A stretch of 32,000 nucleotides of DNA, from the NCBI RefSeq assembly GCF_004365815.1, contig NZ_SODD01000026.1, positions 1-32,000 of the forward strand. Reading direction: 5' to 3'. The stretch is from Breznakia blatticola (lineage in GTDB: Bacteria; Bacillota_I; Bacilli_A; Erysipelotrichales; Erysipelotrichaceae). This document shows, piece by piece, positions 2,667 to 28,802 of the stretch (position 1 is the first letter of the stretch; each line of letters starts with the position of its first letter). The notes under the pieces were generated by a model. That model was not told the origin of the DNA. It saw nothing but the letters and a program-made list of their open reading frames with translations, and did no database searches. The position numbers were made by a program, and so were the translations under genes.

Positions 2667-3119
2667 ATGATTATGACAGAAGCTCAACAAAGAATTATAA
2701 ATCATTTATTATATGAAGCAAATGATGATAAAGTAATAAAGGCATTACATGGAATAAAAGATACCGATATTATATATATATATATGTTTAATTATAATTG
2801 GGATAATGGCTTTGATATACCTAATGAAATTATAAATCATCCTTACTGTGATTTAAGTACGGCACTCATGATGTTTTATCATGCTGATGGGGATGCCTTT
2901 TTAGAGGACAAAAGAGTTAATGAACAACTCAAGAAATGGTTTGATTTTATTAAATTACTATATTCGTTAATTTTAGGCTGTAAATATAAGAAGAGTGATA
3001 TAAAATTTAGCCCTCCACTTTCTAGGGTGCAAATATTTAAGTTAAAAAAAATATTATCTCCTAATGAGAATATATTTATTGAGGAATTCGGAAACAGAAA
3101 TTTAAATATTATCGTTTAG
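2667..3119 (+). CDS. Putative cognate immunity protein of the AHH-type toxin (family not recognised)
   Basis: 150-aa ORF starting 11 nt after the toxin stop, behind an AAAGGAGG RBS. The position is the canonical immunity slot. Confidence 0.55.
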   Translation: MIMTEAQQRIINHLLYEANDDKVIKALHGIKDTDIIYIYMFNYNWDNGFDIPNEIINHPYCDLSTALMMFYHADGDAFLEDKRVNEQLKKWFDFIKLLYSLILGCKYKKSDIKFSPPLSRVQIFKLKKILSPNENIFIEEFGNRNLNIIV

Positions 3120-4223: not shown

Positions 4224-4252
4224 TTGAAGGCTAATGTATAAAGTGTTATAAT
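4224..4252 (+). promoter_or_regulatory. Sigma-70-like promoter TTGAAG-17 nt-TATAAT for the toxin operon
   Basis: Hexamers and 17-nt spacer read directly. It lies ~105 nt upstream of the 4357 start. Confidence 0.5.
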
Positions 4253-4356
4253 TTAGCCATTAAAAAAGCAAGAAGGGAAAAGAAAAACAATTTAAAATAA
4301 GTTTAATGGAATCCATTAACTTGGGTTCTGTTTTAATGTAGAGGGGGGTATAAATA

Positions 4357-4728
4357 ATGGGATGGTTTAGTAAAACCTATGTGCAAGAAATGATTGATGA
4401 GTTTGAAGATTTAATTTGCGATATCAATAGCACAATTACAAAGATGGAAAGTAATTTAAGCACCTTGAAAACAGATGTAAAATCCATTCATAGTAAATTA
4501 GGTACATATACAGAAGCTAAAGGGTCTTACACAGATATTTATTACAAGAAAATAGGGGAAAGTAAAGAAGATTTCAATGTTGTGTATAATAAGTATCAAG
4601 ATGCTATAGATGCACTAAAGGTGAAAAAGAGAAGAGCAGAATACGTGTTAAGTCAATTCGAGGATTATCGTAGAAAAGAAGTAAATCAAGACATAGAATA
4701 TAGTGCAAATGAAGTTTACATTAACTAG
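4357..4728 (+). CDS. Small helical accessory protein (Lap/WXG100-like candidate)
   Basis: 123 aa with a coiled-coil-like composition and a GAGGGGGG RBS. It is the first gene of the operon, the position typical of small helical partners of Gram-positive secreted toxins. Confidence 0.45.
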   Translation: MGWFSKTYVQEMIDEFEDLICDINSTITKMESNLSTLKTDVKSIHSKLGTYTEAKGSYTDIYYKKIGESKEDFNVVYNKYQDAIDALKVKKRRAEYVLSQFEDYRRKEVNQDIEYSANEVYIN

Positions 4729-4740
4729 CGGAGGAGAATT

Positions 4741-5076
4741 ATGAGTGCAGATAAATACATTTTTGATCCTGCGGTAGTAACGAGGGTCATAAAAGAACAA
4801 AGACATGTTCGCAGTGAACTACAAGAGATTTATAAGAGTGCAATTGAACTAAGAAGTAAAATTGATAGTGGCATTAGTTGGAAGGGTAAACAAAAGGACG
4901 TTTTACTGAATATGTTAGATGCTGTGATTTTATATCATGGTGATGTAACTGGTGGAAAAGATGGAAAAAATAATAGTCCTTACGATGCATTAATTAGTGC
5001 ATTAACAAACTTAGAGAAAAGTTTGAATGTATCTGTTAATGATATTCCTGCTTATAAGGAGATTTCAAAAGTATGA
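4741..5076 (+). CDS. Small WXG-like accessory protein
   Basis: 111 aa with a central 'ISWKGKQK' W-x-G motif in a helix-turn-helix-sized protein. There is a 12-nt gap with a GGAGGAG RBS. Confidence 0.45.
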   Translation: MSADKYIFDPAVVTRVIKEQRHVRSELQEIYKSAIELRSKIDSGISWKGKQKDVLLNMLDAVILYHGDVTGGKDGKNNSPYDALISALTNLEKSLNVSVNDIPAYKEISKV

Positions 5077-5726
5077 TTGCATTAAATACAAATGAGATTC
5101 TTGCCTTAAACGGACTATTGGATAGTGAAGCGATCCATGGAATCAAACTTCCAACAGTACCACAAGAACAAGAAGAAGCAGTAACCAAAGAAGTAATCGA
5201 GTCACTCACGGAAAAAGAGTTTTTTATTGATGGGAAGATGAGTGATAAATTGTTTGCGATTACACAATTGTTAGAAGAATACAAAACGAGTGAACGATAT
5301 GTATTTATAAATCAAATGCGTATTGGATTAAAAGATGAAGATGAAGTTACTTTTTTAGAAATTAATGAAGATGAAACTATTTATCTAGGACGTATCCAAA
5401 GAGTAAATATAGTAAAACAAATTGTTGGCAATAGTGAGTTTTTGAAGAAGGAACAAAAAACACGTTACTTTGGAAATGAAGAAAAGGATTGTAGTTTTGA
5501 TGAATACACAGAGTATGTAAATAGTAAAAATGATGAATGGAAAGATATGATAGTTATCCAAGTTTATCAAGAAGAACAACTACAAAACTTTTATACATAT
5601 TATATGAGTGATAATGAGGGATATTGCTACAACCATTTACGTAAAACAAGTAAAGAAAAAGGGCCGAAAGATATACGACAAGACTTAATCGATATTCTTG
5701 AGGTAGTAGGTGATCGCAATGAGTGA
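5073..5726 (+). CDS. Acidic 217-aa accessory protein (candidate chaperone/adaptor; family not recognised)
   Basis: Its start overlaps the previous stop (ATGA). A degraded copy of its 3' end is present at ~9880..9950. Confidence 0.4.
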   Translation: MIALNTNEILALNGLLDSEAIHGIKLPTVPQEQEEAVTKEVIESLTEKEFFIDGKMSDKLFAITQLLEEYKTSERYVFINQMRIGLKDEDEVTFLEINEDETIYLGRIQRVNIVKQIVGNSEFLKKEQKTRYFGNEEKDCSFDEYTEYVNSKNDEWKDMIVIQVYQEEQLQNFYTYYMSDNEGYCYNHLRKTSKEKGPKDIRQDLIDILEVVGDRNE

Positions 5727-6291
5727 TGTTACAGGAGTTACAAGTACTCAAGGTGTTGAAGTTTCAATCGGCGAAGAGAGTTATGAAATTGCAATGGAGT
5801 TTAGTAATTTAGTTGCAAGACTTGCGAGTGCTCAAAATGATTTCAATAAAAGTGCAGCATTTATGAGTGCATCAGAAGGTAGTATTATTGGAAAACAACT
5901 TGCTGAATCAATAATGACAAAAATGTCTGGATTGTTTGGACCAAACAAACAAGCAATACCATCAAATAGTCCAATACGGCCTGTAGGTGATGGAGAAGTT
6001 ATGTATGAAGGTAAGGCAAGTGAAGAGATAGCGAATGCTACAGCAACACTGTCTACACATATTGATAACCTTATGAATTTTTACTCAATGTGCTCAGAAT
6101 ATATCAACCAAGCATGGGAAGCAATGGTTGAAAAAGATAAAGAGTTAGCGGATAAAATCTCTTTTAATTATATTGTTGAGCATAAGGAAGAGTATCGAAA
6201 GATACTTGAAGATGACTATGGTATCGATGCCGATGCATTACAAAAAGTTTCCCTTGAAAAAGATAGTAATCAAGGAGGCACAACAGCATGA
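5710..6291 (+). CDS. Helical accessory protein translationally coupled to the toxin (possible stand-alone LXG-like module)
   Basis: 193 aa (GTG at 5710, or ATG at 5719). Its stop overlaps the toxin start (ATGA) behind AAGGAGG. The last 90 codons are duplicated at 9952..10222. Confidence 0.4.
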   Translation: MIAMSDVTGVTSTQGVEVSIGEESYEIAMEFSNLVARLASAQNDFNKSAAFMSASEGSIIGKQLAESIMTKMSGLFGPNKQAIPSNSPIRPVGDGEVMYEGKASEEIANATATLSTHIDNLMNFYSMCSEYINQAWEAMVEKDKELADKISFNYIVEHKEEYRKILEDDYGIDADALQKVSLEKDSNQGGTTA

Positions 6292-7290
6292 CAAAAACCA
6301 AAATTGTATGTACAAGATGGGAAGACAATGAAGTAAAAAATAATGCGATGTTGTCAAATCTTATCAGTCTTGATTTAGATGGACCAGTAAATAGAATTAA
6401 TGCTGAGTTTGCAAGGTTACCACATATTGCGAAAATTAGTTATAGTAATTTAAATGAAAAAAAGAATACTGCTATGTATGGCTTATCAACTATATCTGGG
6501 TATGTTACAAAAATCATTGATTATATTGATGAGTACATCGATGATCCATTCTACAAAAAATTAAATGGACCAACAGGAGTTCTGGAACGTTTGGAAAAAA
6601 TCCGTTTGGATGACTCAAAATATCAAGTGAAAAACACAGCAGGTATTGAAACAGAAAAAACGGTTTATATTACAGATCCATATACACATCAAACAAAAGC
6701 TGAAGTAGTTAAGGAAGTAAAAAACAAAATCAGCATTGAAGATATGTTGAAGACTAGTGGGGTAAAAGGAAGTAGCAGTATTCCGACATTCAAAGATTTA
6801 TATAAGGAACAGTTTGACCAACAAAGTAAGGCGAATCCGGATTTGAAGTATAGTGAATATGTTGATCAACTTATTCATAGAGCAGACATTAGTCATAGTG
6901 TGGATGCAGGATGGCTAAATGTAGTAAGTGATGTACTAGATATAGTAGGTATTGTATCTATTGTTGGAATATTTACAGGTAAAGATTTTATTACTGGAGA
7001 AATCTATACGAAAGCGGAACGCGATGCAGCCTTAATTAATGGTATAATAAGTATAGGAAGTTTAGCTTTTGCTGGAGTTGGGCTCGTAGGAAGTGGACTA
7101 AAAGCAACGGCAGTTGGATTAGGAAAGGCAGTAGCATTGGATATGGCAGCTGGTGCAGCTGGTATGGGGGCAGGAGCAGTAGCTGGAGCACTAGGTGCAC
7201 CAGATGAACTTCGTGCCTTGATTACAATTGGAACAGCAATGGGTGCTGGGTATGGACTTGGAAAGATAACCAATAAAAATATAAATAAAG
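6021..7290 (+). repeat. 1,270-bp direct repeat, copy 1 (partner 9952..11221)
   Basis: Constant offset of 3,931 nt with no indels. By eye, 12 substitutions, all in 7010-7271. Confidence 0.95.
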
Positions 7291-7805
7291 CTAGTAAGGG
7301 TTCGGGTGCTAATTTAGATAATATTAATGGATTTGCTAAAGGAAATAAGAATTTCGATGATGTAGTAGATGATTATGCAAGGATTTACGCAGATAAAGTT
7401 AAAAGTAATAAGAGTTGGGAATGGATGGATATTGAAGGTGCTGAAAACCTTACGCCAAAACAAATGAAAGAAATTCGAGAATTAGCAAAAACTAATGGTT
7501 ATATACCAAATATTCAGTTGAAGCCAGGAACTAACTACCCTGATTTTGAAAGTTCTGATGTTATTTATAAAGTTAATGGAAATCCTGTTATAGAACAATT
7601 ACCAGAAGATTTATGGCTAAAAGGAGATAAAGCACAATTTGATTATCTAGACTCACAGTTGCCCGGTGGGGTTAGACCAAAAGGGTATACTTGGCACCAT
7701 AGCGAAATATCCGGCAGAATGGAGTTAGTTGAATATGGTATTCATAACTCTACATGGCATAAAGGCGGTAGAGCACCTGGCGGTTGGGCCGATGCAAAAA
7801 GATAG
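6288..7805 (+). CDS. Polymorphic toxin: unknown N-terminal domain, PT-TG, Gly/Ala zipper, C-terminal WHH-type HNH/EndoVII nuclease
   Basis: 505 aa. Contains 'FTGKDFITGEIYTKAER' (PT-TG), 'AAGAAGMGAGAVAGALGA', and the C-terminal 'PKGYTWHHSEISGRMELVEYGIHNSTWHKGG' (WHH at 7692-7700). Confidence 0.8.
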   Translation: MTKTKIVCTRWEDNEVKNNAMLSNLISLDLDGPVNRINAEFARLPHIAKISYSNLNEKKNTAMYGLSTISGYVTKIIDYIDEYIDDPFYKKLNGPTGVLERLEKIRLDDSKYQVKNTAGIETEKTVYITDPYTHQTKAEVVKEVKNKISIEDMLKTSGVKGSSSIPTFKDLYKEQFDQQSKANPDLKYSEYVDQLIHRADISHSVDAGWLNVVSDVLDIVGIVSIVGIFTGKDFITGEIYTKAERDAALINGIISIGSLAFAGVGLVGSGLKATAVGLGKAVALDMAAGAAGMGAGAVAGALGAPDELRALITIGTAMGAGYGLGKITNKNINKASKGSGANLDNINGFAKGNKNFDDVVDDYARIYADKVKSNKSWEWMDIEGAENLTPKQMKEIRELAKTNGYIPNIQLKPGTNYPDFESSDVIYKVNGNPVIEQLPEDLWLKGDKAQFDYLDSQLPGGVRPKGYTWHHSEISGRMELVEYGIHNSTWHKGGRAPGGWADAKR

Positions 7806-7817
7806 GAGGAATTATTA

Positions 7818-8291
7818 ATGTTTGAAAGAAGTGATATGAATGTGCTTCCTTCACCTTCGAAGGAGCAAATAATAAAAACTGAAAGATTTTACAGAATAAG
7901 TTTGCCAGAAGATTATGTAGAATTTATTAAAAATTATAATGGAGCAATACCTAAGAAAAATGCATTTACAATTGATGGAAGGGAGTATTTAGTAGAAAGA
8001 TTTCTTTGTATATTAGGAAACTTGAAAAATGATTATGAAGAAGGTTGGGCTGACATAGGTGTTATTATAACCCAAATATTTGATAGACTTACTGATAGTC
8101 CGGATGAGCTGGGAATGAAAATAATACCAATTGCAGCATTGTTTGCAGGAGATTTTGTTTGCTTAGATTTTAGGGTAAATAAAAAAGATCCAAACGTTTG
8201 TATTTGGTATCACGAGACATCGGATGAGTTTAAGCCAGACACTAAAAAAGTTGCTAGAAATTTCACAGATTTTTTAGAAATGCTTAAATAA
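7818..8291 (+). CDS. SMI1/KNR4 (SUKH-1) family immunity protein
   Basis: 157 aa with the 'SLPEDYVEFIKNYNGA' hallmark. Starts 12 nt after the toxin stop behind a GGAGGA RBS. Confidence 0.8.
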   Translation: MFERSDMNVLPSPSKEQIIKTERFYRISLPEDYVEFIKNYNGAIPKKNAFTIDGREYLVERFLCILGNLKNDYEEGWADIGVIITQIFDRLTDSPDELGMKIIPIAALFAGDFVCLDFRVNKKDPNVCIWYHETSDEFKPDTKKVARNFTDFLEMLK

Positions 8292-8313: not shown

Positions 8314-8388
8314 CCTTGCCCCCAGGCGCGCCAACGGCAAAGTGCCAAAGGAGTGGTGCTGGGCGAGGATGTAATACCGCCCTGCGCT
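8314..8388. repeat. GC-rich conserved intergenic element, copy B
   Basis: Aligns with 712..778. Starts 23 nt after the SUKH gene stop and lies upstream of the terminators at 8476..8550. Confidence 0.8.
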
Positions 8389-8475
8389 AACGTCAACAAA
8401 CAATAAAATACTGGATAAACATGGGACAATAAGCGAAAAAGGGCTTACCCCATAATATTTGAAAATGATAGAAAT

Positions 8476-8550
8476 AACGCCTCATTTTGAACTCTGCGTA
8501 TACATCAAAATGAGACGTTTTTTATTACCGAGGGGCTTCGCCCCTTTTTT
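8476..8550 (+). terminator. Two tandem rho-independent terminator hairpins
   Basis: First: CTCATTTTGA/TCAAAATGAG stem (8481-8490 / 8505-8514) plus a T-run. Second: AGGGGC-TTC-GCCCCT (8531-8545) plus a T-run. Confidence 0.65.
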
Positions 8551-8706
8551 GGTACATCGCAGAAACTTGGGGTGAGCAGAAAAAACACAAGTAAATAAGT
8601 TGGGGTGAAAAGTACCCCAAACTTCTTAAGAGACGGTGTAAAAATTTTTGTGCAAAGTATCCTCCCTTGGTAGAATGAAAATAACTACCAAAGGAGGATT
8701 TTTAAT

Positions 8707-9272
8707 ATGAGTAAGAAAGATATCATTAAAATGATAAGAGAAGAATATGGTGTAACGAATGCTTTAAAAGATCTAATAGGTGATACTCTCCAAGATATGC
8801 TTAATTCAGAATTTGATGAGCACATGGGATATGAGAAACACGACCAGTCTGAACTCAAAGACAATTATCGTAATGGTAGTTCTAAGAAAAATGTAAAAAC
8901 TACACAAGGTGAAATAGAACTAAATATACCAAGAGACAGAAATGCAACTTTTGATCCAATGGTTATAGAAAAGCATAATCGAGATATATCTGACATTGAT
9001 CATAAAATCATAAATTTATATGCTAGAGGTATGTCAACACGTGATATTAGCGATTCTATAAAAGACATCTATGGAGTTGATGTTAGTGCTACTATGATTA
9101 GTAAAATTACGGATAAGATTATGCCGAAAGCTTTAGAATGGCAAAATAGAGCGTGTACACGGTTTATCCAATCGTATTTATTGATTGCGTACATTTTAAT
9201 GTGAAGAATGAAAATATGGTAAGCAAGAAGGCTGCTTATGTAGTTTTAGGCGTTACAGAAACTAGATTATGA
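8707..9272 (+). mobile_element. IS256-family transposase remnant (frameshifted, 3'-truncated)
   Basis: '...MGYEKHD...RNGSSKKNVKT..GEIELNIPRDRNATFDP..I.KH.RDIS..D.KII.LYARGMSTRDI...I...YG...SATMIS.ITDK..P...EWQNR' is IS256/mutator-like. After ~9150 the frame shifts ('VYPIVFIDCVHFNVKNENMVSKKAAYVVLG'). The reading frame ends at 9272, with roughly half a transposase missing. Confidence 0.75.
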
Positions 9273-9507
9273 GGTGGTTGGGTCATGAATGCAGATGATA
9301 TTAACGGTTTAACCCCTACTCAAATTTAGATGAAATATGCATTAACATATGAGCCTATATTGGAGAAAAGCTATATTACTGGCAGGCATAAAAATCAATA
9401 TGGGTGAAGCAAATAGTCTTTTTGGTTATCTTGGTGGAGCTATTCAAATTGATTTTATTAGTTGGAGAATTTAAAGAAATCGGAAAAAATACAAATTGGA
9501 GTGATAA
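9273..9507 (+). pseudogene. Decayed 3' remnant of a TNT-like toxin domain
   Basis: Nucleotide similarity to 11470..11712 (for example 9333-9356 vs 11530-11553, 23/24 identical). Its translation 'GGWVMNADDINGLTPTQI*MKYALTYEP...' contains several stops. Confidence 0.75.
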
Positions 9508-9510
9508 ATA

Positions 9511-9867
9511 ATGATAAAAGTAAATAAAAATGTAATAGAAGTAAACAAAAAGAAAAAAGAATTTGAATATAATATTAGAAAATATATACAGCGAAATGAT
9601 AAAATTTTTATATTACTAGAGATACCTATGGGAATAAATCTAACAAGAAAAGAAATTGACAATATTATTTGTGTTAATTTGGATTTAGATATTATATGGA
9701 TAGTGAAAAATATACCATTAAAACAGTTTCCTAATATGGATAATCTTCCTTTTGAAGCAATAAGAATAACTGAAAATAATGAACTAAGGGGAGTAGACTT
9801 CTATGGTAGAAATTATTGTATTAATCAAAATAGCGGAGAATTAATAAGTTTTAAAGTTGTTAAATAG
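9511..9867 (+). CDS. Orphan immunity protein, paralog of 11716..12078
   Basis: 118 aa. Shares 'DKIFILL(E/D)IP.GI.LT.KE' and 'G.DF.GR' with the 120-aa protein that follows the intact TNT-like toxin. Confidence 0.6.
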   Translation: MIKVNKNVIEVNKKKKEFEYNIRKYIQRNDKIFILLEIPMGINLTRKEIDNIICVNLDLDIIWIVKNIPLKQFPNMDNLPFEAIRITENNELRGVDFYGRNYCINQNSGELISFKVVK

Positions 9868-10222
9868 TACATTTAATATTGATAGTAATAACAAAAGATT
9901 TATAGTGCATAATAAAGAAGAATATTGCTGCAACCAGTTACATAAAATAAATGAAGAGATAGCGAATGCTACAGCAACACTGTCTACACATATTGATAAC
10001 CTTATGAATTTTTACTCAATGTGCTCAGAATATATCAACCAAGCATGGGAAGCAATGGTTGAAAAAGATAAAGAGTTAGCGGATAAAATCTCTTTTAATT
10101 ATATTGTTGAGCATAAGGAAGAGTATCGAAAGATACTTGAAGATGACTATGGTATCGATGCCGATGCATTACAAAAAGTTTCCCTTGAAAAAGATAGTAA
10201 TCAAGGAGGCACAACAGCATGA
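9857..10222 (+). CDS. Chimeric ORF: degraded 3' end of the 5073-type gene fused in frame to the last 90 codons of the 5710-type gene
   Basis: 'FIVHNKEEYCCNQLHKINEE' resembles 'YTYYMSDNEGYCYNHLRKTSKE' of 5073..5726, followed by identity to 6021..6291. TTG start; expression is uncertain. Confidence 0.4.
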   Translation: MLNSTFNIDSNNKRFIVHNKEEYCCNQLHKINEEIANATATLSTHIDNLMNFYSMCSEYINQAWEAMVEKDKELADKISFNYIVEHKEEYRKILEDDYGIDADALQKVSLEKDSNQGGTTA

Positions 10223-11221
10223 CAAAAACCAAAATTGTATGTACAAGATGGGAAGACAATGAAGTAAAAAATAATGCGATGTTGTCAAATCTTATCAGTC
10301 TTGATTTAGATGGACCAGTAAATAGAATTAATGCTGAGTTTGCAAGGTTACCACATATTGCGAAAATTAGTTATAGTAATTTAAATGAAAAAAAGAATAC
10401 TGCTATGTATGGCTTATCAACTATATCTGGGTATGTTACAAAAATCATTGATTATATTGATGAGTACATCGATGATCCATTCTACAAAAAATTAAATGGA
10501 CCAACAGGAGTTCTGGAACGTTTGGAAAAAATCCGTTTGGATGACTCAAAATATCAAGTGAAAAACACAGCAGGTATTGAAACAGAAAAAACGGTTTATA
10601 TTACAGATCCATATACACATCAAACAAAAGCTGAAGTAGTTAAGGAAGTAAAAAACAAAATCAGCATTGAAGATATGTTGAAGACTAGTGGGGTAAAAGG
10701 AAGTAGCAGTATTCCGACATTCAAAGATTTATATAAGGAACAGTTTGACCAACAAAGTAAGGCGAATCCGGATTTGAAGTATAGTGAATATGTTGATCAA
10801 CTTATTCATAGAGCAGACATTAGTCATAGTGTGGATGCAGGATGGCTAAATGTAGTAAGTGATGTACTAGATATAGTAGGTATTGTATCTATTGTTGGAA
10901 TATTTACAGGTAAAGATTTTATTACTGGAGAAATCTATACAAAAGCAGAACGCGATGCAGCCTTAATTAATGGTATAATAAGTATAGGAAGTTTAGCTTT
11001 TGCTGGAGTTGGGCTTGTAGGAAGTGGACTAAAAGCAACGGCAGTTGGATTAGGAAAGGCAGTAGCATTAGATATGGCAGCTGGTGCAGCCGGTATGGGA
11101 GCAGGAGCAGTAGCCGGAGCATTAGGTGCACCGGATGAACTTCGAGCCCTGATTACAATTGGAACAGCAATGGGTGCTGGGTATGGACTTGGAAAGATAA
11201 CTAATAAAAATATAAATAAGG
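9952..11221 (+). repeat. 1,270-bp direct repeat, copy 2
   Basis: See 6021..7290. Confidence 0.95.
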
Positions 11222-11712
11222 TAGTTAAGGACTCGGGTACAGTCGGTTCGGGTAGTGTTTATGATGATTTAGATGAGATGTTAACAGGATCACTTGATGG
11301 TAAAGTTAAGTACAATAAAATAGAATTATCTGATAATGTAAATGATTTCTGGAAAAACAAGGGATACAGTGAGCCACCATATAATGCTGGTGATGTTGTA
11401 ATTGATGGTACCCTTACCAAAGATGGAACATTTGTTCGTGTTTATGATGGTGTAAACACAAAATTGGAAGGTGGATTTGTAATGAAGGCAGAAGATATAA
11501 AAAATCTTACTCCTGCTGAAATCCAAGCAAAATATGCATTACCATATGAGCCTGTTTATGTTGCAGAGGTGAAATTAGATGCAGGAACCAATATTCATAT
11601 AGGTGAGGTAGCACCTAATTTTGGATACTCCGGTGGTGGTATTCAAATTGATATGAAAGGTGCATGGGTAGGTGAATTTAAAGAACTCGGAAAAATAATA
11701 GATTGGAGATAA
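10219..11712 (+). CDS. Polymorphic toxin with the same N-terminal/PT-TG region as 6288..7805 but a TNT/DUF4237-like (putative NAD+ glycohydrolase) C-terminus
   Basis: 497 aa, identical to the first toxin through '...KITNKNINK'. The C-terminus 'FVRVYDG...KYALPYEPVYVAEV...GEVAPNFGYSGGGIQ' (11602-11646) matches the TNT-family 'G.iAP.FGqpGGG.Q' signature as I recall it. Confidence 0.65.
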   Translation: MTKTKIVCTRWEDNEVKNNAMLSNLISLDLDGPVNRINAEFARLPHIAKISYSNLNEKKNTAMYGLSTISGYVTKIIDYIDEYIDDPFYKKLNGPTGVLERLEKIRLDDSKYQVKNTAGIETEKTVYITDPYTHQTKAEVVKEVKNKISIEDMLKTSGVKGSSSIPTFKDLYKEQFDQQSKANPDLKYSEYVDQLIHRADISHSVDAGWLNVVSDVLDIVGIVSIVGIFTGKDFITGEIYTKAERDAALINGIISIGSLAFAGVGLVGSGLKATAVGLGKAVALDMAAGAAGMGAGAVAGALGAPDELRALITIGTAMGAGYGLGKITNKNINKVVKDSGTVGSGSVYDDLDEMLTGSLDGKVKYNKIELSDNVNDFWKNKGYSEPPYNAGDVVIDGTLTKDGTFVRVYDGVNTKLEGGFVMKAEDIKNLTPAEIQAKYALPYEPVYVAEVKLDAGTNIHIGEVAPNFGYSGGGIQIDMKGAWVGEFKELGKIIDWR

Positions 11713-11715: not shown

Positions 11716-12078
11716 ATGAATTCAAAATATAATGTTGAAGAAAATAAAATCATTATAAATAACATTGAAATTTATATGGACTATCCAATTAAGGATATTA
11801 AAGAATTAAGAGATAAAATATTTATTTTATTAGATATCCCTAGAGGGATTAAACTTACAGAAAAAGAAGATTGTAATATCCTTTGTTATAATTCCTCAGG
11901 TATATTTCAATGGCGTATAAGTTCTTCTTTACCCAAAGGCATTGAGAGCAAAGAATTAATACCCTATATTTCTATAGATATACAAGAAGGAAACTTATAT
12001 GGTTTTGATTTCTGGGGGCGCAAATTCCATATAGATACTTTTAATGGAAATTTACTTGACTTTAAAACTTTCAAATAG
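11716..12078 (+). CDS. Putative immunity protein for the TNT-like toxin (family not recognised)
   Basis: 120-aa ORF starting 3 nt after the toxin stop behind a GGAGA RBS. A paralog sits at 9511..9867. Confidence 0.6.
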   Translation: MNSKYNVEENKIIINNIEIYMDYPIKDIKELRDKIFILLDIPRGIKLTEKEDCNILCYNSSGIFQWRISSSLPKGIESKELIPYISIDIQEGNLYGFDFWGRKFHIDTFNGNLLDFKTFK

Positions 12079-12337: not shown

Positions 12338-13150
12338 CTATTTTTTCGTTCCTTTCTTTTTCTTATTTGTCCTGTATTCACTTAAGGAATAGCACTCATA
12401 CTTATTTTGCGAGTACATGATTTTATTGCGAGCTCTCTCAAAGTTTCTAAAACCATTTGCATTATTCAAAATTTTCTTAATATAATTATTTAACCTTCAA
12501 TTACACCGTTCGAGAACCGTCGTCCATCAAACCATACAAATGAGTTTAGTATTTCTTCTTTCCATTTTTCCAGAGTATTTGCACATCTATTAAATTCATT
12601 TATCTGAGAGTTCCGCATTGCTTCAACTATGTCATCAAGTCTTTCATTATGAAGTTCCGCTTTTGTGAACTTGGTTTCTTGAAAAAGTAGTCGTACAGGA
12701 TTACGTATCTTCTAGATTTTACGATATCAAGAATCAGTTTCTTATCGAAATCCATAATCATAAATGCATATTTATATTTCGAATGTCGATTGAAATAAAA
12801 CTCATTGATACAGATGTGTTGTGTGAGTGCTTTTGGTTGTACTTGCACATGAATATCAAACAACTCCACTACTTTAGTAACAGATAGGTTGTATCTTCTT
12901 GCCACTGAGGAAAAAGTTTCGTTATATGGTTTTAAATCATCTAAAATGTTTATAATGGACTTAGAAGATACTTTAGTGCGTCTATTCGATGTAAACGGAT
13001 TGTTTTCAACGAATGAAATCTGGCAGGATTTACACAAGTATCTTTTACATTTGTAGAATAGGAAAGTGTCACGGTTGATAAGACTATTATGTGATACTTT
13101 TCTTATTAGCGAAGCTAGAATACCACTTACTATGCGAGTGGTAATAGGCT
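12338..13150 (-). mobile_element. ISL3-family transposase pseudogene (frameshifts, internal deletion)
   Basis: Minus-strand translation gives 'FYKCKRYLCKSCQ', 'ICINEF', 'SNGVIEG(fs)NNYIKKILNNANGFRNFERARNKIMY'. At least two frame breaks are present, and the total coding length is far below a full ISL3 transposase. Confidence 0.65.
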
Positions 13151-13511: not shown

Positions 13512-14024
13512 ATGAAGAAGGCAATTGTTTTTTTAGCAACACTCATTTTTATAACTGGGTGTATAAGAGTATATAGTTCCCATGACAAATTAAGAGATTA
13601 TCTAAAGGACTATTGTGACGATTTAGAATGTGAAAATGAGGGGATTGTAGCTGAAATGGAAATTACTGATGTAGGAAGTTATGCAATTGCAAAAATAAGT
13701 TATGATGGAAACGAAGAACTTATTTTCGCTTGCCGTCACTCACCTGGAGGTCAATCTCCAACAGGTTCTGGAGAACTTGGACCTGTATTTCTAGAGGATT
13801 CATACTATTTATTTGATAATCTGGATAGTTGGTTTGGACATGGTTATAACTATTATGTATATATGGGTTATGGGCTACTAGAATCAGTGGAATATAATGG
13901 TGTAAAATTAGATAAAGAAGTATTTGAATTTTATTTGAATGGAGATAAAAAAATAATAACTAGCTTCGTTCTTAAATTGGATTCAACAGAACTATTTGAC
14001 AAATTAAATCTAGTTTTGAAATGA
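13512..14024 (+). CDS. Putative lipoprotein
   Basis: 170 aa. Signal peptide with the lipobox 'LIFITGC'. Confidence 0.7.
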   Translation: MKKAIVFLATLIFITGCIRVYSSHDKLRDYLKDYCDDLECENEGIVAEMEITDVGSYAIAKISYDGNEELIFACRHSPGGQSPTGSGELGPVFLEDSYYLFDNLDSWFGHGYNYYVYMGYGLLESVEYNGVKLDKEVFEFYLNGDKKIITSFVLKLDSTELFDKLNLVLK

Positions 14025-14148
14025 TTAAATAGGGTTTTATGTATGTCGTTGCGCGTAAGGAAGGGACAAGGCAATAAAATGTAAGTTATAGTAGTAGTGT
14101 GTGTAGAGTTATTTGATAGTGGTTTATAAAAATTAGTAAGAGGGGAAA

Positions 14149-15321
14149 ATGAAAAATATAGGAGAAGTATTGTTTAGACATGTTACTGCAACGTGTGTAA
14201 CATTTATTATTGCATATGTATTTACTACATATTATGAGAATAATATAGGTGTAAGTAAGTTTGAATGGTTTGGTTATTTAGCCCTTTTTAGTGGTATCAT
14301 TGCAACTGCAACTTACATAGGTCAATACATTGATAAAGCTAAAGGAAAAGCGTTAGTACTATTTATAGTAGGATGTATTATATTGGTGAAATTTGGTGTC
14401 TTTTTTGTATTAGTACCAATGTTACTTATTGAAAGTATAGTATTTATTTATTCGATTTTTAAATTGAATATGAATACTGTTTTGAATAGTGATGAACAAA
14501 GGCAAATTGAACAAGGCAAAATTGATAAAATGAAGATTGTAATACTTCAGAATAGAAGATTATGTGCATACAAAATTTTGATTGCGTTGATTGATACAGG
14601 AATTATATTTAGTCTTTCAAGAATTTTTAATAGTGTTGCTATAGTTGCCTTAGTCTTATTGTTTTTGTCTTATTATTTGTATATAGGTAAGATTCAAGGC
14701 AAAAACATTCAAAAAACTGCTAAGTTATTAGATGATGTTTTGACAGTAGAATGCGACGCGAAATTATATTGTGTTATGTATCGTGCGATAGAAAGAAATT
14801 GTAGTTCGATTGCTATCATGTATAACTATATGTGTGGACTTCAATGGGGTGGGTATGTAATAGAACTTGATAGAATGTTAAAAGCGTACCGAACATACAG
14901 CAAAACGTTTCAATATAAAACCATGTTTTATTCAAGAAAGGCGTTTGATAATAAAGTAAGTGAAAGTTTGTACACAGAGTTAATTGCACTTTATGATCGC
15001 GTTATTAAGCGTAGTAAAAATGATAAAATGTGGATATATGGTAGAAAAATACTGGTGATACAACGAAAAATCATTAAGCAAAGTTATAGAGAAGCACTAG
15101 AGAACATTCATGAATTATATGAATATGAAGAGATTTTACCAAAGATTTCATTAATTAATCAGAGAAGTTTGGAAAGTGAGTGTTTATATCATTTAGGTAA
15201 ATATGAGGAATGCACGAACTTACTTGAATGGATTATTGAACATGGTAATACATTGGTGGTGGTACGTAATGCGCAAGATCGTAAACAAAGGATTCATGAA
15301 AACCTAGCTATTGAAGTATAA
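14149..15321 (+). CDS. Polytopic membrane protein with Cys-rich/TPR-like helical C-terminal domain (unknown family)
   Basis: 390 aa. Several hydrophobic segments in the first ~190 aa. GAGGGG RBS. A paralog sits at 16428..17630. Confidence 0.7.
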   Translation: MKNIGEVLFRHVTATCVTFIIAYVFTTYYENNIGVSKFEWFGYLALFSGIIATATYIGQYIDKAKGKALVLFIVGCIILVKFGVFFVLVPMLLIESIVFIYSIFKLNMNTVLNSDEQRQIEQGKIDKMKIVILQNRRLCAYKILIALIDTGIIFSLSRIFNSVAIVALVLLFLSYYLYIGKIQGKNIQKTAKLLDDVLTVECDAKLYCVMYRAIERNCSSIAIMYNYMCGLQWGGYVIELDRMLKAYRTYSKTFQYKTMFYSRKAFDNKVSESLYTELIALYDRVIKRSKNDKMWIYGRKILVIQRKIIKQSYREALENIHELYEYEEILPKISLINQRSLESECLYHLGKYEECTNLLEWIIEHGNTLVVVRNAQDRKQRIHENLAIEV

Positions 15322-15697
15322 AATAGCTAGATAAAGTGATGTTTACAACATCCTGGTTACATCAATTGACATAATGTCTATCCAATACGAAGTTCACAGC
15401 AACTAAAGCAGTAATATTTATAAAATTACAGTTAAAGAAGAACGTTTATGAAAGTACTGGTGATTATGTATGTTTATAGAAAAGGAAAATAGTATTGTTA
15501 TTAAAATACTCTGATTAAAAATAGATAAACAATTACCTAGACAAATGTAAAAGATTCTTATAAAAATGTATGGTATGATTATTTCGTTGGAATTGCGTTT
15601 TAAATAGTGAGTAAACAGAGAATGTTAAGAAAATCTTATGTTCGGTATTACTTGCTATAACTTAATTAAAAGTGTTGTGATTAGATAAGGAGATTTT

Positions 15698-16258
15698 ATG
15701 AATCAAATTGGTAAGAAAGCTAGTATATTCTTATTGCTAATACTGGTTTTGTTTGGCTGCCGGAGCGATTTACCATCTTTCGAAGAGAGTTTAGATGAAT
15801 TTGTAGAAGGAAGCGAAACACTGGTTCGTGTAGAAGAAATTTTGGATTATAAGGAGTTTGAAGATGCATTGATTGGAATTGCATTAATAAGTAATGAAAA
15901 TGAGGATGAAATTCTTTACTTAAGCGGATTGATTGTTGATGAAGATACAGGATTAACTGTAGAATCACACGGTGAAACTAAACCTATCTATATACATAAT
16001 GAATCAGAAATTATGGTTTACCCTTCAAAAGATAAACAATATGAAAGCGATCCAAAAAGTAATTACACGGAGTTTAAGTCCTCAAAAGTAAAATATTATA
16101 CTGGAATCGTAGAAGGAAATCAAAAACTTAAATATAATGACAAAAAAATATACACCAAGAAGGTGGATTTAGAATATAAGGGCAAGCCAGAAACTATAAC
16201 CTTTTGGATAGTTAAGATATCCAGTGACGAAAGTTTTAATATTGATAAATTGACCTAG
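15698..16258 (+). CDS. Putative lipoprotein (distant relative of 13512..14024)
   Basis: 186 aa with the lipobox 'LVLFGC' and an AAGGAG RBS. Confidence 0.7.
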   Translation: MNQIGKKASIFLLLILVLFGCRSDLPSFEESLDEFVEGSETLVRVEEILDYKEFEDALIGIALISNENEDEILYLSGLIVDEDTGLTVESHGETKPIYIHNESEIMVYPSKDKQYESDPKSNYTEFKSSKVKYYTGIVEGNQKLKYNDKKIYTKKVDLEYKGKPETITFWIVKISSDESFNIDKLT

Positions 16259-16427
16259 TAAGGTAACAGAGATGTAGTAGTTTAAAAACTATGTCTTTTG
16301 TATATTAGATTTGTTAGCGAGTGACATTGTGCGTAAATAAAAGACAAAGCAATAACAATGTAAGTTCTAGTAGTAGTGTGTGTAGAGTTTTTAGATAGTG
16401 GTTTATAGAAATTAGTAAGAGGGGAAA

Positions 16428-17630
16428 ATGAAAAATATAGGAGAAGTATTGCTTAAACATGTTGCTGTAACGTGTCTAACATTTATTATAGTATATGGAT
16501 TTACTACAAATAATGCTAATCTATTTGAATGGTTTTGTAATTTCGCACTTCTTGGTAGTGTTGCTGCAACGGTAACTAACGTTGGTCGACACATTATCAA
16601 ATCAAAAGGAAATGCACTAATACTATTTGTATTAGGTTGTCTTGTAGTGTTTATAGCTGGGTGTATTGTATTGGCAAAATTTGGTGCCCATTTTGTGTTA
16701 ATACCAATGTTACTTATCGAAAGTATATTATTTGCTAATTCGATTTTAAATTTAAATATGAATTCCATTTTAACTAAAGATGAACAAAAGCAAATTGATC
16801 AAGATAAAATTGGAAAAATGAAGACTATAATACTTCAAAACAGAAGATTATACTTATACGAAATATTGATTGTATTGGTAGATACTGTAATTATATATGG
16901 TCTATCAAAAATTATTGAGATTAAAATGATTGTTTTCATAGTGTCAATAGTATTGATTATCTGGTCTTATTATTTGTATATAAGTAAGATTCAATTAAAA
17001 AGTTCATTCAAACCCAGCGAGTTATTAGAGAATGTTTTGTCAGAAGAATGCGATGCATATTTATATTGTGTTATGTATCGAGTAATTGAAAGAAATTGTA
17101 GTTCGATTGCTGTTATGTATTGCTATATGTGTGGACTTCAATGTGGTGATTATGTAATAGAATTTGATAGAATGTTGAAAGAATACTATATGTATAGAGG
17201 AATGTTCCAATATAAAGTAATGTATTATTCAAGAAATGCATATGATAATAATGTAAATGATAGTTTATACAAAGAACAAATTGAATATTGCGATCGCATC
17301 ATTAAACGCCTTAAGAATGATAAAGAAATGATATACAGTAAAAAAATACTCATGATAGAACGAAAATTTATTATACAGAATTATACAGAAGCACTAGAAG
17401 ATCTTTATGAATTACATGATGAATTTTGCGAGTATGAAAAGACAAAATCAAAGCTTTCGATAATTAGTCTGAAAAGTTTAGAAAGTGAATGCTTATATCA
17501 TTTAGGTCAATATGAGAAATGTATGGACTTACTTGAATGGATTATTGAAAATGGAAATACATTAGCGATAGTACGCAAAGCACAAATATGCAAATATAAG
17601 ATTCAAGAAAAACTAGCTATTGAAGTATAA
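16428..17630 (+). CDS. Polytopic membrane protein, paralog of 14149..15321
   Basis: 400 aa, colinear with the first copy. The upstream ~85 nt and downstream ~70 nt are near-identical to the flanks of the first copy. Confidence 0.7.
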   Translation: MKNIGEVLLKHVAVTCLTFIIVYGFTTNNANLFEWFCNFALLGSVAATVTNVGRHIIKSKGNALILFVLGCLVVFIAGCIVLAKFGAHFVLIPMLLIESILFANSILNLNMNSILTKDEQKQIDQDKIGKMKTIILQNRRLYLYEILIVLVDTVIIYGLSKIIEIKMIVFIVSIVLIIWSYYLYISKIQLKSSFKPSELLENVLSEECDAYLYCVMYRVIERNCSSIAVMYCYMCGLQCGDYVIEFDRMLKEYYMYRGMFQYKVMYYSRNAYDNNVNDSLYKEQIEYCDRIIKRLKNDKEMIYSKKILMIERKFIIQNYTEALEDLYELHDEFCEYEKTKSKLSIISLKSLESECLYHLGQYEKCMDLLEWIIENGNTLAIVRKAQICKYKIQEKLAIEV

Positions 17631-19570: not shown

Positions 19571-19638
19571 CTTTATACGTATATATCAAAAAATGATATG
19601 ATATCAAAAGGGTGTGTGATGTAAAATGGGAGGACTCT

Positions 19639-20259
19639 ATGTTTTCGAGAATCTTAGTAAAAGAAAAAGCAAAAGTACAAAAAAGAAGTAATACGAAATT
19701 CATGCTTGTCGATTTATGTTTTTGCTGGATTTTACTGTTTGCACTTTTTATAGCAATTTGTCTTCTAACAGAACCAAAAGTGATAAACGTAACACTAACC
19801 ATAAGTATTGTTGCTATTTTTATTGTTATGATTTCATGTTTTGTTGCAAAAATAATTAATAAAACTGTAAAGTATGCAAAAGATGAAGATGCATTTTTAA
19901 TACTTATTGATGAATCTGCATCATATACGTTTATAACGAAACACTTAGTTGCTTGTTATATCATTGGTGCAGGATTATTGTTATTTATATTTCCTGGAGT
20001 GTATCTAGCATATCGCCTAATGTTTGTAAAACAAATTGCGGTTGATAAGCCAAAATTAGGAATAGTAGATACGATAAAATATTCTTTCGAACTGACAAAA
20101 GGAATTGAATTTGATTTGTTTATTTTGGATCTTTCATTTGCTTGGCGTTACATAATAATCATTTGTACATTTGGTGTAGCTATGATTTTACTTGCTCCAT
20201 ATATCTTAGTAACAAAAGCAGTACTATATGATCAATTGTCAACAGAACCACTGTATTAG
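19639..20259 (+). CDS. DUF975 family membrane protein, paralog 1
   Basis: 'MFSRILVKEKAKVQ...' N-terminus and '...FPGVYLAYRLMFVKQIAVD.P.LG...' fit the DUF975 pattern. GGGAGG RBS; the ATG at 19639 is preferred over the track start. Confidence 0.7.
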   Translation: MFSRILVKEKAKVQKRSNTKFMLVDLCFCWILLFALFIAICLLTEPKVINVTLTISIVAIFIVMISCFVAKIINKTVKYAKDEDAFLILIDESASYTFITKHLVACYIIGAGLLLFIFPGVYLAYRLMFVKQIAVDKPKLGIVDTIKYSFELTKGIEFDLFILDLSFAWRYIIIICTFGVAMILLAPYILVTKAVLYDQLSTEPLY

Positions 20260-20456
20260 TGGTTCTTTACTGCCTTTGTAGCATATGCTTTACGTGCTTG
20301 TCTAGAGCGTTCAACAGCAAAACTGAAAGAAGAAAACTCAAAAATTGAAGCATAAGTTTGGCATGTTCCTTTATAAGGAATGTGCTTTTTTTAATTTGTA
20401 TATATTAAAAAATGGTATGATATCAAAAGGGTGTGTGATGTAAAATGGGGGACTCT

Positions 20457-21080
20457 ATGTTTTCAAGAATTTTAGTAAAAGAAAAAGCAAAAGTACAAAT
20501 AAAAGGAAAAAGAAAATTCATGCTTATCGATTTATATTTTTGCTGGACTTTGTTATTTGTACTATCGATAGTAATTAGTCTACTAATAGAACCAAAAATT
20601 AAAAACACAACAGTAGTAATCGTAATTATTTTTGTTATTCTCGTTATGCTACTTTCGTTCTTTGTAGAAAGAAGAACTAAAAAAACTGTAAAGTATGCAA
20701 AGAATGAAGATGCATTTTTAATACTTATTGATGAATCAGAATCATATACGTTTATTACGAAACACTTAGTTGCTTGTTGCATCATTGGGGTTGGTTTATT
20801 GTTATTTATATTTCCTGGAGTGTATCTAGCATATCGCCTAATGTTTGTAAAACAAATTGCGGTTGATAAGCCAAAATTAGGAATAGTAGATACGATAAAA
20901 TATTCTTTCGAACTGACAAAAGGAATTGAATTTGATTTATTTATCTTGGATCTTTCATTTGCTTGGCGTTACATAATAATCATTTGTACATTTGGTATAG
21001 CTATGATTTTACTAGCTCCATATATCCTAGTAACAAAAGCTGTACTATATGATCAATTGTCAACAGAACCACTGTATTAG
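20457..21080 (+). CDS. DUF975 family membrane protein, paralog 2
   Basis: The C-terminal ~130 aa are almost identical to paralog 1. The N-terminal TM region has diverged. Confidence 0.7.
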   Translation: MFSRILVKEKAKVQIKGKRKFMLIDLYFCWTLLFVLSIVISLLIEPKIKNTTVVIVIIFVILVMLLSFFVERRTKKTVKYAKNEDAFLILIDESESYTFITKHLVACCIIGVGLLLFIFPGVYLAYRLMFVKQIAVDKPKLGIVDTIKYSFELTKGIEFDLFILDLSFAWRYIIIICTFGIAMILLAPYILVTKAVLYDQLSTEPLY

Positions 21081-21174
21081 TGGTTCTTTACTGCCTTTAT
21101 AGCATATGCCTTCTGTATGATTTATGGTATGATATACATCGTGTGTGGATTAAGTAATGAAAGAGAGGGAACGA

Positions 21175-21840
21175 ATGTTTATTAGAAAAGAGTTAAAAGA
21201 AAAGGCAAAAAAGCGACTAAAAGGAAACTTAGCGAATATTATCGCACTACAGTTTTTCTCTATTGTCGCTTTTTTAGGAATGTATGTTTTTGCTTTTGGT
21301 ATGATTGCAAGTAGAAATCGCCAACGAGGAATCACTATTTTACTGAGTATTGGATTTATCCTATTTCTACTGTATCTATCTGTGGTTATTATGAATATGT
21401 ACGTCAAGTATGCAAAAGAGGAAGTATATACATTTTCTGATACAAAGTTAAAGACGGTGTGTATGTATGCCTTGAAAAATCTAGTAGTAGGATTACTTGT
21501 ATGCATTGGAACGATTACACTTTTTATACCTGGAATATATCTACTATATCGCTACACATTTGTTAGACAAATCGCTGTAGATCAACCAAACTTAGGAATT
21601 ATTAAAACTCTTCGATATTCAGCAGAACTGACAAAGGGAATCAAACTAGATATCTTTGCACTAAACTTGTCATTTTACTTTTGGCAACTACTATGTGTAG
21701 TTACTTGTGGTTTAGCAGCGTTTTATGTAATACCTTATGTGACGATGACAAATACGGTATTATATTATGAATTATCTATTGATGAAGGTAATGTGACAAA
21801 TGAAGTAAGGGAGGAACATTGGAAACAGGGAATCGAATAA
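21175..21840 (+). CDS. DUF975 family membrane protein, paralog 3 (diverged)
   Basis: 'MFIRKELKEKAKKRLKGNLANIIAL...' and 'IPGIYLLYRYTFVRQIAVDQPNLG'. Confidence 0.7.
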   Translation: MFIRKELKEKAKKRLKGNLANIIALQFFSIVAFLGMYVFAFGMIASRNRQRGITILLSIGFILFLLYLSVVIMNMYVKYAKEEVYTFSDTKLKTVCMYALKNLVVGLLVCIGTITLFIPGIYLLYRYTFVRQIAVDQPNLGIIKTLRYSAELTKGIKLDIFALNLSFYFWQLLCVVTCGLAAFYVIPYVTMTNTVLYYELSIDEGNVTNEVREEHWKQGIE

Positions 21841-22281: not shown

Positions 22282-22334
22282 AAAAAACAACAGACAAGTT
22301 TGATTAAGTTGAATTAAACCTGTCTGTTGTTTTT
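22282..22334. terminator. Bidirectional terminator between convergent genes
   Basis: ACAACAGACA / TGTCTGTTGT 10-bp stem flanked by an A-run and a T-run. Confidence 0.6.
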
Positions 22335-22635
22335 ATATGTTTCGTCCTTGATATTGTATGGTAACGACGAGCACAGTTTTATCTATTTCATTGATACGAA
22401 AAATAACAATATACTTATCAACTAGTAACTGTTTATAGTTCTTTCCTGCATAATTTCCTTCAATGCGATCTTGATGAGACATCGGAAATGTTGACATATT
22501 CAAAATGTCGTGCTTGATTTGGTTTGTTAATTTTTTTGCACTTTCAGGAGCTAATATCGTATGTGTAATGTAATCATAAATGCTTTCCAATTCTTTTATA
22601 GCTTTAGGTGAAATAACTACTTTATATTTTTCCAA
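22333..22635 (-). CDS. Type II toxin, RelE/ParE family
   Basis: 100 aa. 'YKVVISPKAIKELESIYDYI' and the C-terminal 'VLVVTIQYQGRN' are typical of ParE/RelE. Overlaps the upstream antitoxin by 14 nt. Confidence 0.75.
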   Translation of the reverse strand: MEKYKVVISPKAIKELESIYDYITHTILAPESAKKLTNQIKHDILNMSTFPMSHQDRIEGNYAGKNYKQLLVDKYIVIFRINEIDKTVLVVTIQYQGRNI

Positions 22636-22891
22636 AATACTTTTTGTCTAATTCAGCAAAAACTGTTTTCGCATCAACAGGTTCTGCTCCGTTTGTGATT
22701 TCTTGTTCAGATTCATAGATAGCTTGGTCAATACGATTTATTCTGGCAAATTTATCATATAGTTCACTACTCATTATTACTAAATCGCTATATCCGTTTT
22801 TGGTAACAAATATTGGTTGATTTTCCTTATGTGCAAGGTTTGAAATTTCAGTTGTATTTCGCAAATCTTTAATAGGTACAATAATTGGCAT
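22622..22891 (-). CDS. Type II antitoxin, Phd/YefM family
   Basis: 89 aa. 'IVPIKDLRNTTEISNLAHKENQPIFVTKNGYSDLVIMS' is the Phd/YefM N-terminal pattern. Confidence 0.75.
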   Translation of the reverse strand: MPIIVPIKDLRNTTEISNLAHKENQPIFVTKNGYSDLVIMSSELYDKFARINRIDQAIYESEQEITNGAEPVDAKTVFAELDKKYFGKI

Positions 22892-28637: not shown

Positions 28638-28802
28638 TTATATATATACTCATAACTGCTTTATTTATCGTTAAATATAGTTATCCAGGGGTTTTGTTAA
28701 TTTTCTGTTAACAATGTAAATATTTGTTAAATAAAAAGATACCATATGTTTCAATGTGTACTGTTTAAACAGTGCAATTTTATAAGCGCAAATGAGGTAT
28801 GT

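Follow-up and report, generated by a model that had tools for sequence, protein, structure and literature searches.

We analysed a 32,000-nucleotide (nt) stretch of DNA from Breznakia blatticola (RefSeq assembly GCF_004365815.1, 33-kb contig NZ_SODD01000026.1, positions 1 to 32,000; hereafter the window), and we conclude that the six-gene operon at 4357-8291 is probably, at about 0.8, a highly diverged toxin cassette of the EsaD/EssD type, belonging to a secretion system of type VIIb (T7SSb). It is not a new delivery mechanism. A first-pass annotation had placed these genes among the T7SSb-related operons that encode a polymorphic toxin, its immunity protein and small helical partners, and in this it was right. 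The undescribed delivery module that it also proposed does not hold, as the arrangement is the published esxC-esxB-esaE-esxD-esaD-esaG order (PMC10653861) and related loci lie directly after essC.

The operon and its relation to the EsaD module

The six open reading frames (ORFs) of the operon, all on the + strand, encode proteins of 123, 111, 217, 193, 505 and 157 amino acids (aa). Gaps of 12 nt separate the first gene from the second (4728/4741) and the toxin stop codon from the start of the immunity gene (7805/7818), and four-base overlaps of start and stop codons are present at 5073-5076 and 6288-6291. Gene 4 overlaps gene 3 by 17 nt if it starts at GTG 5710, or by 8 nt from ATG 5719, the start annotated by NCBI, which gives a protein of 190 aa. 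A Shine-Dalgarno sequence precedes each of the six genes, that of the toxin being AAGGAGG, 8 nt 5′ of its ATG. The ORF coordinates, the gaps and the ATGA junctions of the first-pass annotation were therefore borne out, as was the coupling of the 193-aa gene to the toxin gene, where the ATGA at 6288-6291 was read directly. Its near-consensus promoter fared less well. A sigma-70-like candidate (TTGAAG-17-TATAAT with a TG extension, matching at 10 of 12 positions) does lie at 4224..4252 (+), ∼105 nt 5′ of the first gene, but a consensus scan found 46 promoter-like sites against 48.8 expected in shuffled sequence. Because consensus matches are no commoner than in shuffled sequence, this candidate is suggestive by its position only. 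A hairpin followed by a T-run, resembling an intrinsic terminator, is located at 8530..8556 (+), ∼240 nt 3′ of the operon.

We compared this operon with the EsaD module of Staphylococcus aureus, whose EssD/EsaD sequence was confirmed by exact look-up. The S. aureus locus (L019) consists of essC and the genes for EsxC (130 aa), EsxB (104 aa, WXG100), EsaE (224 aa, DUF5081), EsxD (105 aa), EsaD (614 aa, PT-TG and Endonuclea_NS_2) and EsaG (163 aa). The two cassettes have six genes in the same order (123-111-217-193-505-157 aa versus 130-104-224-105-614-163 aa), a DUF5081 chaperone within the cassette and an immunity gene directly 3′ of the toxin gene. In both toxins the transport region comes first, PT-TG lies in the middle and a nuclease forms the C-terminus, and the window toxin shows profile homology to residues 75-269 of EsaD. 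In loci related to that of the window, essC is also present directly 5′ of the cassette. It has been reported that the EsaD N-terminal region has EsxB, EsxC and EsxD as its binding partners, that a long shaft results, that EsaE is a chaperone (Yang et al., mBio 2023, PMC10653861), and that the esxC-esxB-esaE-esxD genes always accompany esaD or esaD-like genes having other toxin domains (PMC10653861). Toxin variants with a common N-terminus and different C-terminal domains, as described for the EsaD-like loci (PMC10653861), are also found here.

The Breznakia cassette differs from that of S. aureus in several respects. Its nuclease is a WHH (HNH/EndoVII) domain instead of Endonuclea_NS_2, and its immunity protein is of the SUKH type, whereas EsaG belongs to YezG/DUF600. 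For the small partners, no resemblance to EsxB, EsxC or EsxD can be detected in sequence. The protein at the EsxD position is 190–193 aa long as compared with 105 aa, and has an insertion of ∼45 aa, an acidic tail and a YxG turn. The toxin has a pronounced Gly/Ala zipper after the PT-TG, unlike EsaD. The host is an Erysipelotrichales anaerobe of the cockroach gut and not a member of the Bacilli, and its cassette is not beside essC within the 32 kb seen.

Among the individual products, Pfam recognises the chaperone, the nuclease domain of the toxin and the immunity protein. The 217-aa product of gene 3 (5073..5726, +) is a member of the DUF5081/EsaE family (PF16887, 33.9 bits against a cut-off of 27), and the DUF5081 family profile aligned to S. 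aureus EsaE over 148 columns (hhalign, 69%, E = 4e-5). The named DUF5081 member is EsaE, which in S. aureus serves the T7SSb nuclease toxin EsaD as its chaperone (PMC12478183). The first-pass annotation was right in calling this protein acidic (isoelectric point, 4.6) but not in calling it extra. The C-terminal nuclease pattern that it noticed in the toxin is a confident WHH domain of the HNH/EndoVII superfamily at aa 462-500 (7671..7787, +; PF14414, 53.8 bits, E = 1.6e-14), whose signature reads ...GYTWHHSE...HNSTWHKGG; Colicin-DNase also matches this region (Pfam, E = 5e-8). Similarly, the SUKH (SMI1/KNR4) identity of the 157-aa protein encoded next, by a gene starting 12 nt after the toxin stop codon (7818..8291, +), was upheld (Pfam; SUKH_6, E = 7.8e-24; SMI1_KNR4, E = 2e-19).

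The middle of the toxin, aa 216-334 (6933..7289, +), contains a PT-TG region followed by the Gly/Ala zipper. The PT-TG motif at aa 216-270 scores below the Pfam cut-off (17.5 versus 23.5 bits), and what stands of this earlier claim is its collinearity with the PT-TG of EsaD in the profile alignment, which continues to EsaD residue 269. The zipper was found as claimed: it is rich in Gly/Ala over aa ∼250-330, and aa 216-334 contain 5 GxxxG and 24 small-xxx-small motifs.

The two small proteins encoded upstream of the chaperone appear to be helical or WXG100-like. The 123-aa helical protein at the EsxC position (4357..4728, +) comes first in the order and has homologues at the same place in two metagenome loci (L002 and L006, below); it gave a sub-threshold YwqH-like Pfam match of 17 bits. 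The 111-aa protein at the EsxB position (4741..5076, +) is WXG100-like by virtue of a W47-K-G49 turn. In its family alignment (A5), G49 is invariant, and WKG is common to this protein and the ‘EsxB’ of an Agathobacter rectalis cassette. The 111-aa protein itself has no Pfam match, WXG100 included, and the second and fourth proteins of the A. rectalis cassette match WXG100 below threshold (E = 4.7e-4 and 9e-3).

Next, we consider the related loci. A metagenome scan with the gene 4 family alignment yielded five of them (L002-L006). We observed that L002 and L006 carry the C-terminal end of EssC, ∼400-540 residues long (TIGR03928, E = 5e-57; PDB 5fv0, Geobacillus EssC, E = 8e-38). In L002, essC is followed by genes for proteins of 125, 106, 217 (DUF5081), 122 and 563 aa and then by a CdiI-like gene. 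L006 has the same genes after essC up to the start of gene 4: the gene 4 match begins right behind the DUF5081 gene, and the contig stops short of a toxin gene. Positions 1 to 4 of the window operon matched their metagenome homologues with pairwise E values of 8e-18 (123 aa; L002/L006), 2e-9 (111 aa), 4e-56 (217 aa) and 3e-18 (193 aa), and residues 3-334 of the toxin at position 5 matched the L002 homologue with E = 8e-48. The tip of the L002 toxin, an EC869-like contact-dependent inhibition (CDI) nuclease, and its immunity gene are unrelated to those of the window. The gene 4 homologues are located between the DUF5081 and toxin genes in L002-L005 and L007, wherever both flanks are on the contig, and the orthologues in the related loci are 115–136 aa long. 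L007, like L002, shares the gene order of the window.

The A. rectalis plasmid NZ_CP143948 has a cassette in the same order, encoding proteins of 155 aa, 106 aa (‘EsxB’), 213 aa (DUF5081), 115 aa, 598 aa (a PT-TG and TNT toxin) and 189 aa. Positions 2-5 are related to those of the window with pairwise E values of 7e-6, 8e-14, 1e-4 and 3e-23, and position 1 is marginal (E = 0.006). The WKG and YxG turns are shared. This cassette differs in its TNT NADase tip, its immunity protein and the 115-aa length of its gene 4 product; it is uncharacterised and annotated mostly as hypothetical. A tblastn search of plasmids with its DUF5081 protein found only itself.

The toxin N-terminal region and the gene 4 product

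The first-pass annotation regarded the toxin as lacking a recognisable export domain, and this is correct at the level of Pfam only. We observed that the first ∼335 aa form a conserved module, found with four different C-terminal domains: besides the 505-aa toxin it recurs in a 497-aa orphan toxin of the window, in the 563-aa toxin of L002 and in the 598-aa toxin of A. rectalis. Residues 1-215 (6288..6932, +) constitute the conserved EsaD-type N-terminal transport region common to these toxins. The N-terminal family profile aligned to EsaD 75-269 (hhalign, 91.6%, E = 8e-7), and upon removal of the PT-TG part it still aligned to EsaD 75-181 with a shared ID.PF motif (66%, E = 5.5e-5).

The product of gene 4 at the EsxD position (5710..6291, +; 193 aa, or 190 aa from ATG 5719) is a predicted helix-YxG turn-helix hairpin to which an insertion and an acidic tail of ∼30 residues have been added. 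When 1.84 billion representative proteins were searched exhaustively with HMMER, eight of them matched. One of these is a truncated copy of gene 4 further along the window, and the other seven are stand-alone proteins of 104–152 aa, which match only residues ∼95-170 of the 193-aa protein through their own C-terminal halves. The family (alignment A1) has an N-terminal helix, an invariant Y-x-G turn (Y99 and G101; YEG in the Breznakia protein) and a second helix with the pattern H..L..FY..C..Y...W..M..LD.ELA. The insertion of ∼45 residues (about aa 55-97) precedes the turn and is absent from seven aligned small relatives; one small relative (P0007) has a short extra stretch at this site. The SASEGSIIGKQLAES segment, which had been proposed to sit where LXG domains carry their motif, lies inside this insertion that the small relatives lack, and the conserved turn is Y99-x-G101. 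That proposal is therefore not tenable.

Neither Pfam, NCBIfam nor the PDB has a counterpart of the family. Word-indexed searches with the 193-aa protein, with toxin residues 1-334 and with the 217-aa protein returned essentially only Breznakia's own proteins, and a scan of the genome collection with the 193-aa family found only two stretches, which tblastn did not confirm and which may be the window itself. In the PDB, all searches by sequence or profile, for which the 193-aa and 217-aa proteins, the toxin and the profiles A1, A3 and A5 served as queries, were negative or spurious.

By eye, a Y-[GN]-I-[DE] motif is present near the C-terminus of the gene 4 product as YGID (aa 170-173; window 6218-6229), at the very end of the metagenome orthologues as YGIEL (C-terminus of the 122-aa protein of L002), and at the end of S. 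aureus EsxD (L019 5674-5991) as YNIEG, which is described as a YxxxE targeting signal. This motif may be a conserved T7SS export signal.

Alternative explanations and proposed function

Several observations weigh against the assignment to the EsaD type. No T7SS core gene is present within the window, and a scan of the genome collection with the EssC fragment of L006 returned only a Lachnospiraceae metagenome-assembled genome (MAG) and a Clostridium MAG, with no Breznakia essC; the small genes 3′ of the MAG essC are unrelated. In the hhalign comparisons, the 123-aa protein had no similarity to S. aureus EsxC, the 111-aa family was negative against EsxB and the 193-aa family gave nothing against EsxD, so that the EsxC, EsxB and EsxD roles of the three small proteins are suggested by position, size, turns and the sub-threshold WXG100 matches of the A. 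rectalis orthologues. The putative PT-TG is itself a sub-threshold match, residues 1-68 of the toxin align to nothing known, and the family profiles used in hhalign are shallow (effective number of sequences, Neff, 2-3). AlphaFold2 modelling from single sequences reached confidence (pLDDT) values of 43.9 for the 193-aa protein and 35.1 for the toxin, too poor for a fold search. Finally, Pfam finds no LXG domain (PF04740) at E ≤ 1 in either the toxin or the 193-aa protein, and the toxin N-terminus reached only 0.6% in hhalign against a nine-sequence LXG profile built from YokI and eight plasmid LXG toxins.

Two of these points lose force on comparison with S. aureus. Genuine EsaD also fails both Pfam LXG and the nine-sequence profile, and hence the missing LXG match is uninformative for EsaD-type domains; the want of a recognisable export domain is general to EsaD-type toxins and not a peculiarity of this locus. 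Only HHpred with deep alignments is reported to have identified a divergent LXG domain in EsaD (Yang et al., PMC10653861). A confident LXG match on the toxin N-terminus, which in the first-pass annotation was to mark an ordinary LXG locus, was not obtained, and EsaD itself cannot produce one in these tests. As to the small partners, whose families have no similarity to one another either (hhalign), a lack of similarity between hairpins of ∼100 aa is expected within one system, because Pfam offers no family even for S. aureus EsxD, and EsxC is highly divergent according to Yang et al. (PMC10653861).

The cassette shares with the canonical LXG toxins (such as TelA-D of Streptococcus intermedius and YokI of Bacillus subtilis) the polymorphic T7SSb character, a helical N-terminal targeting region, small WXG100-like partners, a C-terminal toxin domain, an adjacent immunity gene and orphan cassettes downstream. 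It differs from them in that its toxin has no PF04740 match (YokI scores 192 bits) and does not align to the LXG profile (0.6%), and in that the Lap1/Lap2 families DUF3130 and DUF3958 and the DUF4176 chaperone have no Pfam match in any of the four proteins encoded upstream of the toxin. Moreover, canonical LXG toxins have two Laps with or without an Ltc chaperone, whereas three partners and an EsaE-type chaperone are present here. We have therefore filed the locus under the EsaD-type module and not under canonical LXG/Lap.

We also weighed three other explanations. In one of them, originating from the first-pass annotation, the toxin is a split LXG protein whose targeting domain has been detached and is supplied in trans as the 193-aa protein. 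This protein is about as long as an LXG domain, is predicted to be helical and is encoded by a gene translationally coupled to that of the toxin, in which Pfam finds no LXG. However, all eight of its relatives in the exhaustive HMMER search are within 104–152 aa and none is the N-terminus of a long toxin, those other than the truncated copy being stand-alone hairpin proteins; with orthologues of 115–136 aa, the extra length in Breznakia is accounted for by the insertion and the tail. The toxin also retains its own conserved N-terminal region of ∼215 aa that aligns to the transport region of EsaD, the 193-aa family reaches only 0.6% against the LXG profile (hhalign), and in S. aureus, too, this partner is encoded separately, by esxD upstream of esaD. 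We consider a split LXG toxin very improbable. Even harder to credit is that genes 4 and 5 are a pseudogene, i.e. a single toxin gene of ∼700 aa disrupted by a −1 frameshift at 6288. Such a lesion would explain the 4-nt overlap between ORFs that are not in one frame, and the word-indexed search did give only the 121-aa protein of the orphan copy, the full-length product being unlisted. Yet the toxin ATG has the strong AAGGAGG Shine-Dalgarno sequence 8 nt upstream, NCBI annotates the 190-aa protein for gene 4, L002, L003, L004, A. rectalis and S. aureus likewise have two separate genes here, and no fused homologue was found among the 1.84 billion representatives.

More deserving of consideration, although still unlikely, is that the operon resembles the EsaD module in layout only and constitutes a distinct export module, having new partners and a new N-terminal domain and possibly an altered EssC recognition or another exporter. 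The three small partners without sequence similarity to EsxB, EsxC and EsxD, the unmatched residues 1-68 of the toxin, the gene 4 family without Pfam, NCBIfam or PDB counterpart and the extra predicted helix of its 193-aa member are in keeping with this idea. Against it stand the shared DUF5081 chaperone, the homology of the toxin to EsaD, the identical gene order and the relatives adjoining essC; also, with EsxD having no Pfam family and the EsxC-type proteins being very divergent (PMC10653861), dissimilar hairpins are to be expected. The EsaD-type assignment is thus the one that we prefer.

For an EsaD-type cassette, we infer from the S. aureus system that the proteins form a complex, that it is exported, that the toxin is active and that the producer is immune. 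The first ∼215 residues of the toxin would assemble with the three hairpin partners (123 aa; 111 aa, with WKG; and 193 aa, with YEG) into an elongated helical shaft, and the 217-aa DUF5081 protein of the EsaE family would act as chaperone and targeting factor. Inside the producer, the SUKH protein would bind and neutralise the C-terminal WHH nuclease. The EssC ATPase would then recognise and export the complex. The PT-TG/glycine-zipper region could plausibly aid entry of the toxin into a competitor cell, where the WHH domain would cut nucleic acid.

What is new in this locus is modest: a module that extends past the Bacilli to Erysipelotrichales, Lachnospiraceae and gut metagenomes, a YxG partner family that has not been modelled and an enlarged protein at the EsxD position. 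The published survey of the module covered the Bacilli (PMC10653861), and in the literature searched there was no paper that connects Breznakia or Erysipelotrichaceae with T7SSb, or Lachnospiraceae with EsaE/EsxD. The locus extends the architecture of three partners plus EsaE beyond the Bacilli. Standard domain searches hardly reveal such cassettes in anaerobic gut Bacillota (Erysipelotrichales and Lachnospiraceae): they pick out no more than the DUF5081, toxin and immunity domains, and therefore a lone DUF5081 gene among helical ORFs of ∼100-200 aa is to be read as a T7SS toxin export module. A bolder proposition, which we put forward tentatively and hold to be rather doubtful, is that the cassette and its gut-metagenome and Lachnospiraceae relatives are a deep, undescribed EsaD-type branch outside the Bacilli with partners of new families, the ‘YxG’ hairpins included, and that the enlarged EsxD-position protein, with its predicted-helical segment of ∼45 residues and its acidic tail, could change the architecture of the shaft. 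The added segment might then, for example, replace a helix no longer provided by the unaligned first ∼68 residues of the toxin. Partners as divergent as the YxG family and the enlarged protein are also material for finding the essential features of the shaft.

The toxin-immunity island and the rest of the window

A second copy of part of the cassette lies downstream. The 989 nt at 6021-7009 are 100% identical to those at 9952-10940, and 88–98% identity continues to ∼7290, the toxin-domain junction. The duplicate starts at gene 4 codon ∼104, just past the YxG turn, and runs through toxin codon ∼334. The downstream cassette comprises the 3′ remnant of a second gene 4 copy from codon ∼104 onwards (9949..10222, +), an orphan toxin of 497 aa (10219..11712, +) having the same first ∼334 aa and a different C-terminal domain, for which Pfam gives only a weak TNT hint (E = 0.06), and a 120-aa protein (11716..12078, +), presumed from its position to be the immunity protein. 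This appears to be a classic orphan cassette, predicted to be able to replace the toxin tip by recombination: its 1.27 kb of 5′ homology (the end of gene 4 and toxin codons 1-334) would allow toxin tip and immunity gene to be swapped together.

The region is a toxin-immunity island. Between the two cassettes, we observed a truncated IS256/Mutator transposase fragment (8707-9204, +; E = 3e-40), a decayed toxin-end remnant in three frames (9205-9510, +), whose aa sequence is 48–69% identical to the final part of the 497-aa toxin, and an intact gene (9511-9867, +) for a 118-aa paralogue that is 40% identical to the 120-aa presumed immunity protein. A truncated transposase gene with a weak ISL3 helix-turn-helix match (12627-13037, −) and the fragment at 8707-9204 flank the orphan cassettes. 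Upstream of the operon are an Imm33-like gene (137-667, +), a gene for a 579-aa toxin (916-2655, +) with PT-TG and an AHH nuclease, and a gene for a DUF4274 protein (2667-3119, +), the partner of this toxin. The 579-aa toxin is 5′-truncated, being without the first ∼125 residues of the transport region, and is weakly collinear with residues 130-277 of the 505-aa toxin. A GC-rich repeat of ∼65 nt, GCGCCAACGGCAA...GAGGATGTAATACC, occurs at 718-780 and 8327-8390 (+); the two copies are about 75% identical and are located ∼50 nt 3′ of two immunity-type genes, those at 137-667 and 7818-8291. It matches neither an Rfam family nor a tRNA, and fold prediction gave nothing significant.

Farther along the window, two regions (13512-17630 and 19612-21840, +) hold tandem sets of paralogues with no or little annotation: two pairs, each of a small lipoprotein-like gene and a gene for a membrane protein of 390 or 400 aa without a Pfam match, and three consecutive DUF975-like membrane proteins. 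A ParE-family toxin (22333-22891, −; E = 1.5e-10) overlaps a Phd/YefM-like antitoxin gene that scores below the Pfam cut-off (25.2 versus 29.8 bits). At 28514-28594 (+), flanked by a PBECR3 nuclease-like gene (27975-28340) and by a Na/Pi-cotransporter gene, is a skipping-rope RNA that scores 69.6 bits with Rfam RF02924 (gathering score, 36.7). A Na+/Pi cotransporter-PhoU gene at 28746-30483 (+) is apparently split, its two ORFs (28746-29522 and 29344-30483) overlapping but not sharing a frame, which suggests a frameshift or a sequencing error.

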